Virus record (IMG/VR): IMGVR_UViG_3300030616_000001
Location: 30,959 to 94,958 of that record
From: a virus
Length of the DNA: 64,000 bases
Reading direction: 5' to 3' (one strand)
Below the pieces are notes generated by a model. The model saw nothing but the letters and a program-made list of their open reading frames with translations, was not told the origin of the DNA and did not search any database. How positions within the stretch are numbered: the stretch's first letter is position 1; the number at the start of each line of letters is the position of its first letter. This document shows, one piece after another, positions 30,666 through 60,957 of this stretch. A program made the translations under genes and the position numbers.

Positions 30666-30996
30666 TGTCGGCCTCGCTGGCGCGGAGATAGAAGAACCCC
30701 TCGAGGCGCGGCTCGTTGGCCATCAGCATCCGCGAGTAGAACGGTTTGTGGTTGTTGTTGAGCTTGAACGGATCCGCGGAATCGGTGTCCATCGCACGGT
30801 GCCAGCGCAGAACCTCGAACAGGCCCGCGATCCCGTAGTGCTTGAACCCACGGTCCACGAGATCCAGGGCAAGGCGCCGCAGTTCCCGGTAGACCCACGG
30901 GTTGTCCCGGTGGAACTGGCGGAACGCCTTCCCCATGTCGGACTCGTCGTCCCGTGTCGCCGCGTCGAGCTCGGGCAGCGTCATCTGGTCATCCAT
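30658..30996 (-). CDS. Conserved phage protein
   Basis: FHRDNPWVY...EVLRW...FKLNNNHKPFYSR. Confidence 0.75.
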   Translation of the reverse strand: MDDQMTLPELDAATRDDESDMGKAFRQFHRDNPWVYRELRRLALDLVDRGFKHYGIAGLFEVLRWHRAMDTDSADPFKLNNNHKPFYSRMLMANEPRLEGFFYLRASEADNG

Positions 30997-31678: not shown

Positions 31679-32164
31679 CTAGAAGGGAATGTCGTCGTCG
31701 TCGGGACCGTAGCCGCCGCCCTGGTTACCACCACCGCCGCCGCCCTGGTCCCCGCCACCACTGGGTCCGCCGCCGCCCTGGTAACCGCCGCCGTCCTGGT
31801 TACCAGATCCCTGGCGACCCTGGCCGCCCTGGTTGCCGCCGCCCAGGAAGATCACGCGCATCGCCTTGATCTCGGTGATCCACTTCTTCTGACCGGTGTT
31901 CTGGTCCTCCCAGCTGCGCGTCTCGATCTTGCCCTCGACGCACACCTCCCGACCTTTCTCCAGGTACTTCCCGGCGGACTCGGCCTGCTTGCCCCACACC
32001 ACCACGTTGTGCCAGTCGGTCTTCTCCTGGCGCTCGTTGTTGCGGTCGAAGTACACCTCCGACGTGGCGACGGAGAACCGACACCGTGCGGTGCCGCTCT
32101 GCGTGTAGGACAGTTCGGGATCCTTCCCGAGCCGTCCGATGATGATCGCCTTGTTCAGTGACAT
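31679..32164 (-). CDS. ssb: Single-stranded DNA-binding protein
   Basis: LNKAIIIGRLGKDPEL...TDWHNVV; Gly-rich tail ending DDDDIPF. Confidence 0.97.
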   Translation of the reverse strand: MSLNKAIIIGRLGKDPELSYTQSGTARCRFSVATSEVYFDRNNERQEKTDWHNVVVWGKQAESAGKYLEKGREVCVEGKIETRSWEDQNTGQKKWITEIKAMRVIFLGGGNQGGQGRQGSGNQDGGGYQGGGGPSGGGDQGGGGGGNQGGGYGPDDDDIPF

Positions 32165-32295
32165 GCGGATCTCCTTCCCCGGATCACAGGTCCGGTGCTT
32201 GAGCCGTTCGGCCCGTAACTGCACTTCCTGGCGGGGGATCTGTCCGCGTCGGTGTTGGTCAATCCGCCCCGCCCAGGAACGGTGTCAACACTGAG

Positions 32296-32324
32296 ATCCT
32301 ACCCCGACCCGCGGCGGATCTCAA
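32296..32324 (-). promoter_or_regulatory. Promoter TTGAGA-N17-TAGGAT for the ssb operon
   Basis: Intergenic, consensus spacing. Confidence 0.7.
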
Positions 32325-32689: not shown

Positions 32690-33148
32690 TCATTCGGCCG
32701 CGATCCTGGTCTTGCCCAAGGTGATCGGCATCAGCCCCGGGTCAATCCCAGCCGTGGGCATGTGCACGTCCACGGGTCCTTCCTTCATCTGGTTCGCCGC
32801 GTCCAGGGCGCGTCGTCTCGCCGCCTCCCTGAGTCGCTCACCCTTGCCACCTCGTTGCTCCTCGACGGCTTCCGTCGCGGCCTTGGTCTGCCCGGAGATG
32901 CACAGCAACCCCTTGCACCTGGGGCACGTGAGGTTGTGTCCGTCCCCCTGCATCTTCTGGGGCAACCGGTACTCCTCCAGGAGCGGCCGGAACCCCGACC
33001 ACACCGACCGGGACGAGAGGAGGAACCCCTTGTCCCCGACGTTGGCGGGCACCTGGATGCGTCCCACAACCTTGTTCTCGTTGGCGCACGTCACGTCCAC
33101 TTGGACGCCCCGCGCCGAATCCTGTTCGTCAACCCTTGCCTTGTCCAT
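32690..33148 (-). CDS. Hypothetical protein
   Basis: Start MDKARV with AAGGAG RBS; CPRC. Confidence 0.65.
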   Translation of the reverse strand: MDKARVDEQDSARGVQVDVTCANENKVVGRIQVPANVGDKGFLLSSRSVWSGFRPLLEEYRLPQKMQGDGHNLTCPRCKGLLCISGQTKAATEAVEEQRGGKGERLREAARRRALDAANQMKEGPVDVHMPTAGIDPGLMPITLGKTRIAAE

Positions 33149-33662
33149 CGTCTTCTCCTTTGCCTGTTCCTTCGCCTTGTAAAATGGCCCGGGCGGGAGC
33201 AGCCATCCCGTCCGGGCCGGAAGAGGCACCGGCGGACGTCTGGTCCGCCAGGAGCGACCCCATTGTATCAGCGGCGCTGCCGGGCTGCAAGCCTCGTGGT
33301 TTGAACCCCACTCCCCGCCACATCCCGAACGTCAACGCCATCAGCATGGTGTGCCGCGCCTCGGTGCTGTTGTTTTCGAGCCACCCCGTGCCGTCGCACT
33401 TGGGGCACGGCCCCGGATCTTGTTCGGCCCGCAACCGCCCCAGGATCTCCCGCACCTTCGCGTACGCCTCGCGGAACCTGGGGTGACACCCGTGGCGCGG
33501 ATGGTCGCAACCCAGGGCCACAACGGCCCCGTCGCGGATCCTGGCCAACGGCATCCCTTCCACGGTGACGTCCGCGTCCTCGGCGCACACGTGTTCCGCG
33601 CCCATCAGGTAGTCGGGGATCGTCTCCGGGTCGGTGACCTCGATCTGGCGGACCTCACCCAC
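33129..33662 (-). CDS. Hypothetical protein (3' tail overlaps the putative sRNA)
   Basis: GGGAGG RBS + GTG; CPKCDGTG. Confidence 0.6.
   Translation of the reverse strand: MGEVRQIEVTDPETIPDYLMGAEHVCAEDADVTVEGMPLARIRDGAVVALGCDHPRHGCHPRFREAYAKVREILGRLRAEQDPGPCPKCDGTGWLENNSTEARHTMLMALTFGMWRGVGFKPRGLQPGSAADTMGSLLADQTSAGASSGPDGMAAPARAILQGEGTGKGEDDGQGKG
33181..33255 (-). ncRNA. Putative ~75-nt anti-Shine-Dalgarno sRNA (hairpin - UGCCUCUUCC linker - terminator hairpin)
   Basis: Follows promoter 33262-33290; stem CUGGCGGAC/GUCCGCCGG with loop CAGAC; 13-bp stem 33186-33218 (one mismatch) then AUUUU. Confidence 0.55.
33262..33290 (-). promoter_or_regulatory. Promoter TTGCAG-N17-TACAAT with extended TGn
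   Basis: -35 at 33285-33290, -10 at 33262-33267. Confidence 0.65.
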
Positions 33663-47771: not shown

Positions 47772-48950
47772 CTACGCGAGGCCCGGGTATGGGTCCTCGT
47801 GCCGCACGAACGCGGCTACCTCGTCCGTCCCACCACGGTGGGAACACCCTTTCCGATACGGGCACTGGGACCCGTGACCACGACACGCCGCACCGTTGCG
47901 CGGCCAGATCCGCGCCGACCTGTGGTGCTCCTCCACGCCGATCAGCGCGTGGACGTCCGCGACCCACGCCTTGACGGCCTCCACGGTGGACTCCACACCG
48001 ACACGGTACGCGAACGTCTCGCCGCGGCCGATGATGCGCTCGAGCGCGGACGCGCACCGCTCGTTCTCCACGTCGGGATCCAGCCCGTTGGCGCGGACCG
48101 TCGCGTTCCACTGCTCCAGGGACGTGTCACACGCCGACCTGGACATGCCGCCGACGCCCGAACCGTTGCACTCGCCGCACTGCTTGGTGACCACCTCCCC
48201 GTCCTCGTCCTTCCGTGACGGGATCGTTCCCTTGCCCTTGCAGTTGCGGCACTTGATCGTCTCGGGGATCGCCGGGGCCTTGGTCCGCACCACCTCCACA
48301 GTGGCGGCGGTGATCGTGGTTTCCGCTGCCTTGGACGCGATCCACATCGCAGCGGCGAGCCACTGGTCGAGTTCCATGTCGTCGGCGACGGTCTGGGGGT
48401 CTGTGGTGGACGTGAACTTGCGGACCAGGACCGCCGGTCCCAGCTGGCCACGGTCCAGGACCCCGTCGATCCTGGCGGCGTAGGTGATGTCACCGAGGCC
48501 CAGCGGGAACTCGACCACCCTGTCCACGAGGGGGCGGCCGGTCTTGTCCACCATGAACTGCGGGTCGGAGATGCCGCCGAGGGTGTCCCCGTAGTGGGCC
48601 AGGATCCGCATCGCCTCGTCGGCGATCTCCTCGATGGTACAGGTCCACCGTTGCGCCTCGTCGCGCCCCATCTCACCGACCATCCGCAGCAGTTCGTGTC
48701 TGTACGCCATGACCACCGCGTCCGCGGCGGCCCGGGTCCTGATCGCGCTCAACCCGCGCACCACGGCCCGATCCCGCTCGTGGAGTGCGTCGGCGAGCAC
48801 CGACTTGATCCTGGGCGGCCACGGCGCGTGGCGGCGCCCTTTCAGTCTCCAGTTGTCCTCGTACTCGATGCGGAACCTGCGCGGGCACGTGGCCAGCGTG
48901 GTCAACATCGTCCTGGTCCGCCTGTTGGGCGGCCGTGTTTGGTTCTCCAA
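47772..48950 (-). CDS. AddB/Cas4-like PD-(D/E)XK protein with inserted DnaJ-type Zn finger
   Basis: TCPRRF at N-terminus, C...CPYRKGC at C-terminus, ARIDG; CRNCKGKG/CGECNGSG; TTG start after AGGAGGAGG. Confidence 0.75.
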   Translation of the reverse strand: MENQTRPPNRRTRTMLTTLATCPRRFRIEYEDNWRLKGRRHAPWPPRIKSVLADALHERDRAVVRGLSAIRTRAAADAVVMAYRHELLRMVGEMGRDEAQRWTCTIEEIADEAMRILAHYGDTLGGISDPQFMVDKTGRPLVDRVVEFPLGLGDITYAARIDGVLDRGQLGPAVLVRKFTSTTDPQTVADDMELDQWLAAAMWIASKAAETTITAATVEVVRTKAPAIPETIKCRNCKGKGTIPSRKDEDGEVVTKQCGECNGSGVGGMSRSACDTSLEQWNATVRANGLDPDVENERCASALERIIGRGETFAYRVGVESTVEAVKAWVADVHALIGVEEHHRSARIWPRNGAACRGHGSQCPYRKGCSHRGGTDEVAAFVRHEDPYPGLA

Positions 48951-48981
48951 GTGCCTCCTCCTTTCGGCCAATGGCTGCGGC

Positions 48982-53360: not shown

Positions 53361-53388
53361 ATAATACATATTTCAACGTACCGGTCAA
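53361..53388 (-). promoter_or_regulatory. Early promoter TTGACC-N16-TATTAT with upstream A-tract
   Basis: AT-rich island; TG before the -10. Confidence 0.8.
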
Positions 53389-55392: not shown

Positions 55393-55420
55393 ATTCTACA
55401 GGTTTCAAGTGCTGCGTAAA
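55393..55420 (-). promoter_or_regulatory. Early promoter TTTACG-N16-TAGAAT with upstream A-tract
   Basis: AT-rich island; TG before the -10. Confidence 0.75.
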
Positions 55421-56825: not shown

Positions 56826-57464
56826 TCAGCACCTCCCCGCCCTGGCGAGCGTGTTCTCGACCGCGGCCGCGACCTCCCGGGGCTTCCTGACCCGCAGGAT
56901 CACCGACGCCGGGATCCACCGCACCTCGCGCCGACGGGCCGTCTTGACCGGGCGCAGCTTCTCGTCGTAGCACCGCACCGGCCCCTCGGACTCGTCGAGC
57001 ATCTGGTTCCACTCAGCCGCGCCGGGCCGCACGATCCCGACCTTGCCGTTGCGCGGGTTGACCGGCTTGGCCACCGTCTCCCACGTGGGCTGTGCGTTGG
57101 AGTAGTTCACCAGCACCTCGTCCCCGGCCTTGACCTCGCCCAGGTTGGCGGCGAGCTCCATGCGCCGCTCCACCCTGGACTCCTTCCGGGCGTCCTCCTT
57201 GGTCTGCGTGATCGCGTGGGCGTCGATCGCGTTCTGGACCACGTCCTTGGTCCAGTGGCCCATCGGCGCCTTGAGCAGGCGCTCGCCGATCACGGTGTAC
57301 CCGAACGTGCGGCCCGACGCGATCATGGGGGCAAGCTGGTACTCGACGCGCCCCTTGTTGCGGCCGCGGCGGATCATCCTGGTCCCCACCACGACACAGT
57401 CCACCTTGCCCCGGCGCCCGTCCAGGCACACAACGTCGCCGATCCTCTTGGTCTTGGTCGTCAT
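56826..57464 (-). CDS. Hypothetical early protein
   Basis: Start MTTKTK after hairpin + GAGGAGG. Confidence 0.7.
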   Translation of the reverse strand: MTTKTKRIGDVVCLDGRRGKVDCVVVGTRMIRRGRNKGRVEYQLAPMIASGRTFGYTVIGERLLKAPMGHWTKDVVQNAIDAHAITQTKEDARKESRVERRMELAANLGEVKAGDEVLVNYSNAQPTWETVAKPVNPRNGKVGIVRPGAAEWNQMLDESEGPVRCYDEKLRPVKTARRREVRWIPASVILRVRKPREVAAAVENTLARAGRC

Positions 57465-57505
57465 CTCACTCACCTCCTCGCGCCCGCCCAGGGCGCGTGT
57501 CTGCG

Positions 57506-57982
57506 TTACCGGTTGGCGATCACGTGGTCGGTCCACGCCTTGTTCACGTCCGCGACGATCCTGCCGAACTCTGCCGCCGCCTCCTCGTAGTCGTCGTCCA
57601 GGATATGGCTCAGGACCAGGGACTTCAACCGCTCGTCGTAGGGGTCGGGGTCGAACCCGCGCATCTCCTCCGCGTCCTTCATCTTGCCGAACGCCTCGCC
57701 CACCACTGTCAACGCCGCGGCGCGGTTGCCGTCGCAGTCCTCGAGGGTGGCCTCGATCAGCGGGGGCACGTCGTAGTCGGGGGCGTCCACGGTCCGCGCC
57801 ACGCCGGCCAGGATCTCCCTGGCGGCGACGATCAGGCGGTCCGCCTCCTGGACCTTGACCAGCAGGTCCATGCGCTTGGTCTTGGCCAGGCCCACCTCCA
57901 CGGCGGTCAGGTCGGAATAGGTGGCCTGGAGGCTGCGGCACAGGCCCGCGATCCGGTCGTAGTTCGTGTCCTTGGTTCCCAT
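57506..57982 (-). CDS. Hypothetical early protein
   Basis: Start MGTKDT. Confidence 0.7.
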   Translation of the reverse strand: MGTKDTNYDRIAGLCRSLQATYSDLTAVEVGLAKTKRMDLLVKVQEADRLIVAAREILAGVARTVDAPDYDVPPLIEATLEDCDGNRAAALTVVGEAFGKMKDAEEMRGFDPDPYDERLKSLVLSHILDDDYEEAAAEFGRIVADVNKAWTDHVIANR

Positions 57983-58039
57983 CTCTGCCTTCCCTTCTCG
58001 CGGCCGCCCAGGCCGCGTGTCTGTGAGGTTCCGTGTCAC

Positions 58040-58579
58040 CTACTTCATCTCCCAGGCCGTGAGCTTGCCCAGGGCCGCGTCGGTCCACTTGATCTCGGCC
58101 TCGGGCGCGTCCTCGCCCTCCATGATCGCCATCGCCGCGTCCAGGATGTCCGCGTCCAGGTCCCGCACGTGCACGCGCTTGGCGATCCGCTCGGCGTCCG
58201 GTCCGAAGATGTCGAAGTCCGCGTCCACGTCGTTGAACTGGCGGCACTGGTCGGCGTCGGCGTACACATCGGTGCTGCCGCACTCCCACCGGCACACCAC
58301 CACGGTGAACCGCTCGGCCTCGGCCTGCTCGATGCTGCCGCGGATCATGGCGATCGTGTCGGTGAGGGTGTTGAACTCCACCGCCATCGCTGTGATCTTG
58401 GCCACGTCCACCCGGGGGCACTCGACCCGGTTCCCAGCGTCCCCGCGCACCGTGCGCAGGGCATCCTCCACGTCCTCCATGACCCCCTCCAGGGTGTCCC
58501 CCAGCATGGACGCCAGGGACAGGCGCCGGTTCGTGAGGGTGTCCAGGATCTGCTCCATCTGCTTGGTGTTCTCGTTCAT
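58040..58579 (-). CDS. Hypothetical early protein
   Basis: Start MNENTK. Confidence 0.7.
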   Translation of the reverse strand: MNENTKQMEQILDTLTNRRLSLASMLGDTLEGVMEDVEDALRTVRGDAGNRVECPRVDVAKITAMAVEFNTLTDTIAMIRGSIEQAEAERFTVVVCRWECGSTDVYADADQCRQFNDVDADFDIFGPDAERIAKRVHVRDLDADILDAAMAIMEGEDAPEAEIKWTDAALGKLTAWEMK

Positions 58580-58635
58580 GGGGTGCCTACCTTTCCGGCC
58601 CCGCCCAGGGGCCGCGTCTGTGTGGCCGTTGGCCA

Positions 58636-59016
58636 CTAGTTGCTCTCCGTGTTGAACGACCCGTCGAGGATCGCCTTGGCCATTTTCCGATACCGCTTCA
58701 ACGAGCGGCGGGTGTTGCGGCGAATGTGCTTGATCGCCTCGGGACCGGCGAACCGGGTCACCGGCGTGTCCTGGCGGGTACAGTTACAGGACCGGCACGC
58801 GGTCACGAGGTTGTGCTCGGAGTTGGTGCCGCCGTCCGCCTTGGGCTTGACGTGGTCCAACGTGACGTCGGTCGGGTCGGCGTCGCGCAGGTCCGCGAGG
58901 CAGTACAGGCACCGGAAGTCGTCCCGGAGGTAGATCGCCAGGCGCTTGTCGCTGCGGATCCACTGGCCTGCCGGTTGGTGCGGGGATCGTGCCCTCTTTC
59001 GCTCGCCGTTCGTCAT
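58636..59016 (-). CDS. HNH endonuclease
   Basis: RDDFRCLYC, TLDHV.P..GG...NLVTACRSCN. Confidence 0.9.
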   Translation of the reverse strand: MTNGERKRARSPHQPAGQWIRSDKRLAIYLRDDFRCLYCLADLRDADPTDVTLDHVKPKADGGTNSEHNLVTACRSCNCTRQDTPVTRFAGPEAIKHIRRNTRRSLKRYRKMAKAILDGSFNTESN

Positions 59017-59064: not shown

Positions 59065-59092
59065 ATTATACAAAATTCCCTGTACAGGTCAA
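59065..59092 (-). promoter_or_regulatory. Strong early promoter TTGACC-N16-TATAAT
   Basis: Near-consensus, AT-rich upstream region, TG before the -10. Confidence 0.85.
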
Positions 59093-59272
59093 TAAAAATC
59101 ACTACTTACACAACTTTTTTAGAAAAGTGAGTGTTTACGACGACTTACATCACATAAAAATGGGACCCGCCAGGGGTTGGCCGGGTCACGAGGTGTTACC
59201 AGGCGGTAAAATCGGGACCCCTTGCCAAGGGGTGGACCAGGACCTTGCGGAGGGGGCGGCTGCCGCCGCGCG

Positions 59273-59841: not shown

Positions 59842-60906
59842 TTAGAAGGTCATCCACCCCGCCGGTGTCGCGTGGATCACCAGCTTGTCCCAGGCCACCA
59901 CGATCGCCGCGGGGCCGCCCGCGCCGTCGATGGTTTCGCCGCCGTTGGGCACCACGTTGATCGCGGCCACGCCGGCGTTGCCCATCGCGTCCTTGATCAC
60001 GTAAACCTTGCCCGGGGGCACGGTCGCCACTGCGGGCAGATCCACCTGGACCACACCACCCGTCGTGTCCACGTCCAGGATCACGTCGGCCGGCGCCGCC
60101 GGGTAGGGGGACATGCCGAAGTTGACCGTGGTCAACGCCATGACCCCCTCCACCAGCGACTGGACCGCGCTGTGGTCGGTGCCGTCACCGGTCCGGTGGG
60201 CGTCGTTCAGCGCGACGTTGGCGTGGTCGGAGCCGTCGCCCAGGGCGTGGGCGCGGTTGGACTTGACGAGACGGGCCGAGCTGAGGCTGAGCCAGCCCAC
60301 GCCGTCGCTGATGAAGGCCGCACCTTCGTTGTTTGAGGCGATGGTAAACGCGGCGGCCACGCCGTCGATGGTTTCCGCGCCGTCGGGGGTCACCGCGATC
60401 TGGTTGGCGCCGGCGCCCTGGGTGTGGTCCAGGACGCTGATCACGCGCCCCGTGCGGTTCGCCGCCGAGGGCAGGTTGACCACGGACGGGCCGCCGATCC
60501 CGGTCGTGTCGACGAGGACCGCGTCCACGCCGTCGGCGACGGCGTAGGGGGTTGCGGCCATCTCGTAGATCGCCCCGGTCGGGCCGAGCTTGGTCCAGTC
60601 CGCGCCGTTCCACGCGATCTCGTCGCCCGCCTCGAACTCCTGGCCCGTGTTGGTCTTGGTGGGGTCGTTGTCCACGACGTCGGCCTGGACCTCGTAGACC
60701 CAGCCGTTCTGCACGTCGCCGGGATCGGGGAAGTCCGCGGCCACCGCGACCGCCCCCTTGAACAGCATGGGGTTCGTCATCGTGGCGACGGCGGCCTCGT
60801 TCGCGTTGACCTGCGCGATGATCTCGTTCGTCTTGGTGACGAGCACGCTGTCGCTCGGCCCCATCACGCCCGAGGCCTGGTCCTGTGTGACCTGATCGAT
60901 TGCCAT
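59842..60906 (-). CDS. Fibre/decoration protein with duplicated beta domain
   Basis: FKGAV...GWVY...GDEIAWNG; two copies of PY...VDTT...V.LP...G...D..G.A...I..P.G.ETIDG. Confidence 0.7.
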   Translation of the reverse strand: MAIDQVTQDQASGVMGPSDSVLVTKTNEIIAQVNANEAAVATMTNPMLFKGAVAVAADFPDPGDVQNGWVYEVQADVVDNDPTKTNTGQEFEAGDEIAWNGADWTKLGPTGAIYEMAATPYAVADGVDAVLVDTTGIGGPSVVNLPSAANRTGRVISVLDHTQGAGANQIAVTPDGAETIDGVAAAFTIASNNEGAAFISDGVGWLSLSSARLVKSNRAHALGDGSDHANVALNDAHRTGDGTDHSAVQSLVEGVMALTTVNFGMSPYPAAPADVILDVDTTGGVVQVDLPAVATVPPGKVYVIKDAMGNAGVAAINVVPNGGETIDGAGGPAAIVVAWDKLVIHATPAGWMTF

Positions 60907-60957
60907 TTCGGATCTCCTTTCTTCGCGGCCTCGACCGCGTGTTTGGCTTGAGAAACC

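Follow-up and report, generated by a model that had tools for sequence, protein, structure and literature searches.

The genome of the phage in IMG/VR virus record IMGVR_UViG_3300030616_000001 (94,958 bp) contains four copies of a small hairpin in which the loop and the 5′ flank are constant while the stem changes by compensation. The DNA analyzed was the final 64 kb of that record (64,000 nucleotides, positions 30,959 to 94,958), hereafter called the window, to which coordinates refer unless another source is named. Three copies (hp3, hp2, and hp1, in the order of transcription) occupy successive junctions of an operon that starts with an HNH endonuclease gene and continues with genes B, C, and D; the fourth (hp4) is in the leader of a gene that, judging by its N-terminus, probably encodes a single-stranded DNA-binding protein (SSB). 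The compensatory changes, a pair of G·U pairs in hp4 that form on the sense strand only, and the invariant loop and flank together support selection on the folded sense-strand nucleic acid, as judged from sequence comparison, and the element is probably a message-punctuation or control tag. An earlier note on this DNA had described three intergenic elements, each with one of the stems of hp1-hp3, a UGGGC loop, and a ribosome-binding site; these are present on the minus strand exactly as described, and hp4 adds a fourth. Its proposal that compensatory stem changes reflect selection on RNA or single-stranded DNA structure is supported by the analysis below. The constant loop extends to all four copies, whereas the constant flank has to be shortened from CAGAC to GAC(A/G)C because the fourth copy has UUGAC at that place.

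The element measures 19 to 25 nt and consists of a 7-bp stem, made entirely of G-C pairs in hp1-hp3, a UGGGC pentaloop, and a 5′ flank that reads (C)ACAGAC(A/G) or GUUGACA. A purine-rich Shine-Dalgarno sequence (SD) begins 0 to 4 nt past the stem of hp1-hp3, and the ATG lies 14 to 16 nt past it; the segments from stem to AUG are GAAAGGUAGGCACCCC after hp3, AGAAGGGAAGGCAGAG after hp2, and AGGAGGUGAGUGAG after hp1. Across the four copies, the 3′ flanks are AGGAGG, AGAAGG, GAAAGG, and AUUGAC. When the copies were folded in context, the hairpin stayed formed, the SD was mostly open, and no extended helix was added to hp1-hp3. Inspection of the spacer sequences revealed no consistent GCCCA downstream that could act as a pseudoknot or kissing partner for UGGGC.

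The pattern CAGACN8TGGGC has exactly three exact matches, whether the window or the full genome of 94,958 bp is scanned. A relaxed core (GACRC-N4-CCUGGGCGG) has four, on the sense strand only and with none elsewhere in the genome, against an expectation of 0.32 even with one mismatch permitted. Covariation was scored in a five-row alignment composed of the four copies and hp3 of a close relative, G001. All cells of the stem are paired (35/35, 100%), double-sided changes occur in four of the seven pairs, the covariation score was reached by 1 of 500 shuffles, and sliding the register lowered the paired fraction to 31-63%. Since the folding-energy z-scores of the hairpins (-0.7 to -1.8) are ordinary for their guanine-plus-cytosine (GC) content, the case rests on recurrence and covariation rather than on stability. 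The nine variable columns all correspond to the A/G position of the flank or to stem pairs 2-5, and the five loop bases, the two closing C-G pairs, and the GAC-C flank are invariant, with 13 positions identical in the four copies even though 7 of the 14 stem positions distinguish hp1 from hp4. The chance that the variable columns would spare all nine unpaired loop and flank columns, among 25 in total, is ∼0.006 (hypergeometric, alignment A2). Because variation is confined to the stem and the A/G position, these results suggest sequence-specific reading of the loop and flank, with the stem recognized only as a helix.

The fourth copy was found by a scan for UGGGC loops with paired flanks, and its register is the same as that of hp1-hp3. 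It shares GACAC and the CC/UGGGC/GG core with them, and its two G·U pairs would become C·A mismatches on the opposite strand. A longer GUGUUG...CAACAC helix encloses hp4 near the predicted 5′ end of the ssb leader. If the promoter-like sequence upstream is used, hp4 would start ∼6-8 nt past the expected transcript start, so the sole copy that is not in a gene junction would stand at the 5′ end of its message. It lies in a 200-nt gap before the SSB-like gene, ∼95 nt upstream of the ssb SD, and is 26 kb from hp1-hp3, in a separate transcription unit and beside an unrelated gene.

We examined how far the family extends beyond this phage. The close relative G001 (IMGVR_UViG_3300018080_000342) is 92-98% identical, and its hp2 and hp4 are identical to the copies described here. 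At the position of hp1, 305 nt (57478-57782, comprising the 3′ two-thirds of gene C and hp1) are replaced in G001 by 25 nt (positions 3963-3987 of L004); homology picks up 3 nt or less from the 3′ edge of hp1, whereas on the left the break falls within gene C, which is cut to ∼78 codons. The 25-nt remnant holds CACAG...GCCCCTGGG, which resembles the 5′ half of a hairpin copy. A second relative, G002 (98 kb, 51% GC), is more distant and encodes a DUF6744 protein that is 64% identical to that of this phage; its early operon is without the HNH gene and genes B-F, and its whole genome yielded no significant covariance-model match. One G002 match with a UGAGC loop (L306 13117-13153) was rejected as a family member, being conserved N-terminal coding sequence of a nuclease gene (TRPPxRRT). 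In the phage studied here, a Cas4-like nuclease gene (TCPRRF/Y motif; 5′ end at 48900-48955, minus strand) has a TTG or GTG start with a strong SD, and its start holds a hairpin-like palindrome, GGCCGCC-N5-GGCGGAC, whose conservation in G002 (L306 13111-13150) is at the level of the peptide TRPPxRRT. Distant homologues of gene B in the viral contigs L006 and L007 are without a UGGGC-type hairpin. A covariance-model scan of this and related genomes had been suggested in the earlier note; covariance model R1, applied to this phage, G001, G002, L006, and L007, scored the new copy hp4 and revealed no member other than the copies already described. An exact-pattern scan of metagenome and genome contigs gave 181 matches, only two of which are perfect hairpins (the relative itself and one chance match), and the scan of viral contigs gave nothing beyond G001 among the matches listed. 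Because the pattern and model scans gave, among the matches listed, only G001 and chance matches, the UGGGC-hairpin family is, by these sequence searches, private to the lineage formed by this phage and G001.

We tentatively read the four elements as one small lineage-specific hairpin family that acts on sense-strand mRNA as sequence-tagged punctuation for processing, capping, and SD insulation, a possibility to which we give real weight but short of an even chance. From the observed anatomy, covariation, strand, position, and lack of a U-tract, we infer cleavage, capping, and a sequence-specific reader in the following way. The stem would be needed only as a helix, and the UGGGC loop, the two closing C-G pairs, and the single-stranded GAC(A/G)C flank would be read as sequence by one postulated host or phage factor. 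An endonuclease would cut the unpaired CA-rich flank just 5′ of the stem, and the cleaved hairpin would be left as a protective 5′ cap directly before the exposed SD of genes B, C, and D; on the ssb transcript, the same hairpin would already be the native 5′ cap. The helix may also shield the upstream cistron from 3′-exonucleases and prevent GC-rich coding sequence from pairing with the SD. An RNase E-type enzyme (purine-N, cut, C) would fit if the host is actinobacterial: in mycobacteria, the RNase E cleavage site is RN↓CNU, and leaders and the spacers of operons are rich in such sites (PMC10641625, PMC6448022). A more specific proposal gives the hairpin a dedicated reader, for which it would be a private address tag: a hairpin-specific RNA-binding protein or endoribonuclease that cuts or clamps the first early message at each copy and couples it to ssb expression. 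This proposal appears unlikely, and the reader in that case would possibly be one of the orphan early proteins.

Several observations weigh against the punctuation reading. Apart from the two identical copies in G001, the loop of its hp3 is UGGGG instead of UGGGC, hp1 is missing from it, and G002 is without the motif. Because G001 tolerates the changed loop and the loss of hp1, single copies are dispensable. The comparison with G001 also provides no test of selection: 1 of 56 and 1 of 62 spacer positions differ, and the adjoining coding DNA (97-98% identical) is conserved to the same degree. The evidence comes from only four paralogous copies with no informative orthologues. GA↓CAC fits RN↓CNU in part, with the U at +3 not matched, and the RNase E argument is only a lead. 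Finally, a purely protective hairpin would not need a fixed loop, and for this reason the reader is postulated rather than found.

The element fails the defining features of each known family with which we compared it. It shares a GC-rich hairpin with intrinsic terminators, and no U-tract follows any of the four copies, nor did a terminator scan make a call there; because the phage's own operon-end hairpins have a U-tract, the copies are not canonical terminators. Membership of a boxA/boxB-like class, raised in the earlier note, had to be abandoned on both loop and boxA sequence. The lambda nut site resembles the element in combining a linear conserved box with a short stem and 5-nt loop, in being promoter-proximal on early transcripts, and in being read as RNA; however, its loop is of the GAAAA type, whereas all four copies here have UGGGC and no GNRA-like purine pentaloop, no boxA consensus (CGCUCUUA-like) is found upstream, no spacer separates box from stem, and three copies occur in one operon. 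No family match to an N-like arginine-rich antiterminator was obtained in the neighboring genes, where small basic peptides were not searched exhaustively. In T7 early mRNA, the RNase III signals R0.3, R0.5, R1, R1.1, and R1.3 cut and cap individual cistrons. The hairpins are like these signals in being related, repeated, and placed between consecutive genes of one promoter-driven, probably early polycistronic message. T7 sites have helices of ∼20 bp or longer, with an internal loop in a two-turn duplex; here, the duplex is absent, the conserved features are a pentaloop and a single-stranded 5′ flank, and the 7-bp stem is too short for an RNase III site. Promoters for a phage polymerase, whether T7-like or of the N4 hairpin type, are likewise not indicated, because neither a T7-like RNA polymerase (PF00940) nor a sigma factor (PF04542) was detected in the genome, although the PF00940 control matched nowhere and makes that negative weak.

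Other comparisons gave similar outcomes. Repetitive extragenic palindromic (REP) elements of Escherichia coli operons, puf operon hairpins, and ompA-type 5′ stabilizers are GC-rich stem-loops, located intercistronically or at 5′ ends, that set segmental mRNA stability, like the proposed role here; those stabilizers need no fixed loop, and REPs are host-wide, present in many copies, and associated with a RAYT transposase, compared with four copies in one phage. Rfam 15 gave no covariance-model match, only chance-level microRNA or small nucleolar RNA matches (E ≥ 0.1). An open frame runs through hp3, and another through hp2, each from a GTG next to the preceding stop codon. A coding explanation was rejected: GC content at third codon positions is 79% and 68% in these frames compared with ∼90% in genes, hp1 is in another frame, hp4 is noncoding, and G001 has GTA in place of the GTG before gene C. 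Cluster K mycobacteriophages carry a linear 13-nt motif, the start-associated sequence (SAS), of which the SD is a part (GGGATAGGAGCCC); in its extended form (ESAS), the 17-bp arms are conserved in sequence and the spacers vary, and there are 11-19 copies (PMC3203893). The likeness is that of a phage-private repeat at the starts of some nonstructural genes, with an inverted repeat just upstream of the SD and with host genomes that are without the repeat (PMC3203893). Unlike SAS/ESAS, the SD is outside the conserved core here, the arms co-vary freely, and the loop is fixed; the 13-nt SAS is absent from the start sites of the hp1-hp3 spacers. By analogy, the element would work most like the T7 intercistronic processing and stabilizer hairpins, and it also resembles the Cluster K start-associated repeats. 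Its sequence form (GAC(A/G)C flank and UGGGC loop) is new, whereas the kind of signal has already been seen in other phages.

Hairpins in gene junctions are general in this phage. Nearly every short non-overlapping junction, including those of late genes, is built of a stop codon, a GC hairpin (6-7 bp with a 3- to 5-nt loop), an SD, and a start codon; where a junction is without a hairpin, the genes overlap. Two of these hairpins have orthologues in G002 in which the helix is kept by compensatory changes and the loops differ: GUUCCC-GUAG-GGGAGC before the 755/758-amino acid gene is GCUUCC-GCAU-GGAAGC in G002, and CGCGGU-CGAG-GCCGCG before the fiber gene is CGUGGC-AUAC-GCCACG. Because the helices are retained in this way, junction hairpins in general are RNA structures under selection in this group of phages, and the UGGGC set is a subset of them with loop and flank sequence in common as well. 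Of the two junction hairpins compared, the one before the fiber gene at 60924-60939 (CAAACA CGCGGU CGAG GCCGCG AAGAAAGGAG) resembles hp2 in both flanks. The early operon of G002 is much shorter, and its first junction (L306 7156-7224) has a hairpin and UUUUU directly before the SD of the gene G homologue, so that this terminator-like element sits where the phage studied here has hairpins without U-tracts.

These features count in favor of the punctuation reading and also bear on its alternatives. One alternative dispenses with a sequence reader: the copies would be structure-only spacer hairpins that stabilize or insulate the message, their loop and flank inherited from one ancestral spacer that was copied when the operon gained genes B and C. 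A hairpin followed by an SD is the general build in the phage, the G002 orthologues vary the loop and keep the helix, the family is tiny and private, and G001 tolerates UGGGG, all as this explanation would have it. Drift after duplication, however, should change unpaired positions at least as fast as stems, whereas stems differ at up to 7 of 14 positions with 13 loop, closing-pair, and flank positions identical in the four copies, and hp4 lies far away in another transcription unit before an unrelated gene; we consider this explanation improbable but not negligible. A translational operator, in which a phage or host protein recognizing loop, closing pairs, and flank would keep the 30S subunit off the message and silence genes B, C, and D together, would have analogues in the MS2 coat protein-replicase operator and the T4 gp43/RegA type of control. 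Protein-binding hairpins classically show just this combination of a co-varying stem with an invariant loop and flank, and bound protein could block 30S entry because the stem of hp1-hp3 abuts the SD. The distance of hp4 from the ssb SD is too great for steric occlusion, family searches found no RNA-binding domain in the neighboring genes (the model of the gene D product was unusable), and G001 tolerates both the loop change and the loss of hp1, so that an operator strikes us as rather doubtful.

Still less probable is transcriptional control, either by attenuators without U-tracts that produce a stepwise fall after each early gene or by a nut-like loading site for an antitermination factor. 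The copies are promoter-proximal, with hp4 in a leader and hp3 after the first gene, the linear flank and short stem with its 5-nt loop resemble boxA/boxB, and the U-tract hairpin right before the SD at the first early junction of G002 indicates that termination at early junctions exists in this phage group. Against it, no copy has a U-tract and the evident terminators of the phage do, the loop is not GNRA-like, the flank is unlike boxA, a nut site needs no three copies per operon, no N-like arginine-rich protein was identified by family search of the neighboring genes, and no downstream terminator was identified. The least probable explanation, in our view quite unlikely although it could coexist with an RNA role, is a DNA-level cassette joint, that is, a short homology or folded single-strand site for gain and loss of accessory early genes, comparable to the PeSL cassettes of T4-type phages or, in a looser sense, to the attC sites of integrons. 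The earlier note had mentioned a cassette boundary, and what can be cited for it is anecdotal: copies flank genes B, C, and D, which G002 does not have, and the one indel between this phage and G001 ends at the 3′ edge of hp1 and leaves the hairpin-like remnant. That is a single event with its left breakpoint within gene C rather than at a copy, the homology is only ∼9 + 5 nt, no recombinase is adjacent and the element contains no promoter, and the G·U pairs of hp4 and the covariation indicate a folded single strand and not duplex homology. With respect to PeSL cassettes, no promoter-like site is beside hp1-hp3 and only hp4 follows one; with respect to attC, the element has 19-25 nt compared with an imperfect palindrome of 57-141 nt, has no RYYYAAC/GTTRRRY core, and no recombinase is encoded in the operon.

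The features discussed are compiled in Table 1. The record ends overlap exactly by 117 bp (1-117 = 94842-94958), and a tail-fiber open reading frame spans the join, so this "direct terminal repeat" is more likely an artefact of circular assembly, on the sequence, than a true terminal repeat. The GC content is ∼66%, and virtually every gene is on the minus strand. In the order of transcription, tail-fiber-like genes (64000 down to 59842) are followed by a gene for a 194-amino acid protein, two U-tract hairpins, an AT-rich stretch with a promoter, and the HNH-B-C-D-E-F-G operon, in which D-E-F-G are overlap-coupled with zero gap. Downstream of E, F, and G are a second promoter (55420 to 55393), the DUF6744 gene, two genes whose products we take from their sequences to be a candidate MoxR-like ATPase and a neighboring candidate vWA-like protein, and recombination and replication genes. 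Three AT-rich sigma-70-type promoters (53361-53388, 55393-55420, and 59065-59092, minus strand) split the early region into units; their -10 boxes (TATAAT, TAGAAT, and TATTAT) are conspicuous in 66%-GC DNA. The genes behind the hairpins are consecutive and promoter-proximal, as the earlier note had it, and calling them early is a reasonable inference from position, because theirs is the first operon after the late-operon terminators and the TTGACC-16-TATAAT promoter.

Table 1. Hairpin copies, neighboring genes, and related features (window coordinates unless stated; bit scores of hp1-hp4 are from covariance model R1)
Feature	Position	Strand	Evidence or score
hp3, CAGACG + CGGCCCC-UGGGC-GGGGCCG, between HNH stop and SD/ATG of gene B	58596..58620 (hairpin 58596-58614)	-	50.4 bits
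hp2, CAGACA + CGCGGCC-UGGGC-GGCCGCG, between gene B stop and SD/ATG of gene C	57999..58023 (hairpin 57999-58017)	-	49.3 bits
hp1, CAGACA + CGCGCCC-UGGGC-GGGCGCG, between gene C stop and SD/ATG of gene D	57479..57503 (hairpin 57479-57497)	-	48.6 bits
hp4 (new fourth copy), GACAC + CCGUUCC-UGGGC-GGGGCGG, ssb leader	32264..32286 (hairpin 32264-32282)	-	39.4 bits, E 3e-7
Promoter-like TTGAGA-17-TAGGAT, ending 14 nt ahead of hp4 stem	32296..32324	-	consensus match only
SSB-like gene downstream of hp4 (presumed)	31679..32164	-	N-terminus MSLNKAIIIGRLGKDPELSYT
Two terminator-like hairpins with U-tracts, closing the preceding late operon	59150..59260	-	sequence reading
Sigma-70-type promoter TTGACC-16-TATAAT of operon HNH-B-C-D-E-F-G	59065..59092	-	promoter prediction
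HNH endonuclease gene, first of the operon	58636..59016	-	PF01844, E 7e-11
Extra hairpin GUGGCC-AAC-GGCCAC, overlapping HNH stop codon, just 5′ of hp3	58622..58636	-	
Gene B, 177 amino acids, acidic, without Pfam or PHROG family	58045..58579	-	
Gene C, 158 amino acids, acidic, without family; truncated in G001	57506..57982	-	
Gene D, 212 amino acids, without family	56826..57464	-	
Junction hairpins with orthologues in G002	60924-60939; genome 23029-23044 (window -7929..-7914)	-	G002 86144-86159, 60538-60553

Family searches of genes B-G gave no Pfam or PHROGs match. Genes B, C, and D show no significant mutual similarity, and their origin as paralogues that brought the hairpin along was rejected. 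A homologue search found one other database member for gene D, the AlphaFold model of its product has a mean confidence (pLDDT) of 38, and an ESM Atlas search for a trans-acting partner was uninformative. Few clues to the host were obtained: TerL is at most 25% identical to that of cultured phages, WhiB and tRNA were not found, and the DUF6744 protein has no match in INPHARED. The -10 boxes TAGGAT and TAGAAT, which are of a kind known from Streptomyces promoters, hint at an actinobacterial host. A 191,388-bp contig encodes the DUF6744 protein of this phage plus a 41%-identical, 605-amino acid paralogue (P0007 and P0013); it may be a concatemer, a chimeric assembly, or a second related phage.

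A hairpin with CAGAC as its loop (33250-33232) had been taken in the earlier note, from the loop at 33238-33242, as a hint of protein titration by a small RNA. Its stem is comparable to those of the family. The link is weak, however: the sense strand has 88 occurrences of CAGAC, ∼0.07 such loops would be expected by chance among 75 comparable hairpins, and what stays constant in the flank is GAC(A/G)C. Titration by such a small RNA is not supported by the sequence. The surrounding segment (33181-33290, minus strand) consists of TTGCAG-17-TACAAT, the CAGAC-loop hairpin, an CCUCUUCC linker, and, immediately before a gene start at 33148, a hairpin with a U tail; it might just as well be a leader or attenuator as a free small RNA.

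The compact 25-nt element splits cleanly into positions read as sequence (loop, closing pairs, and flank) and positions read as structure (stem), and it should therefore be easy to dissect by mutation. In practice, work is limited by a phage that is uncultured, a family of four copies, and what amounts to a single relative. Should there be a specific reader, the two could provide an orthogonal RNA tag-and-reader pair for high-GC hosts. RNA-structure punctuation is, to our knowledge, common in phage early operons, and we know of few readers outside T7, T4, and lambda. A dedicated reader of this tag, if real, would give phages a natural equivalent of Cas6/Csy4-style processing of operons or of a regulon built on an MS2-like operator.

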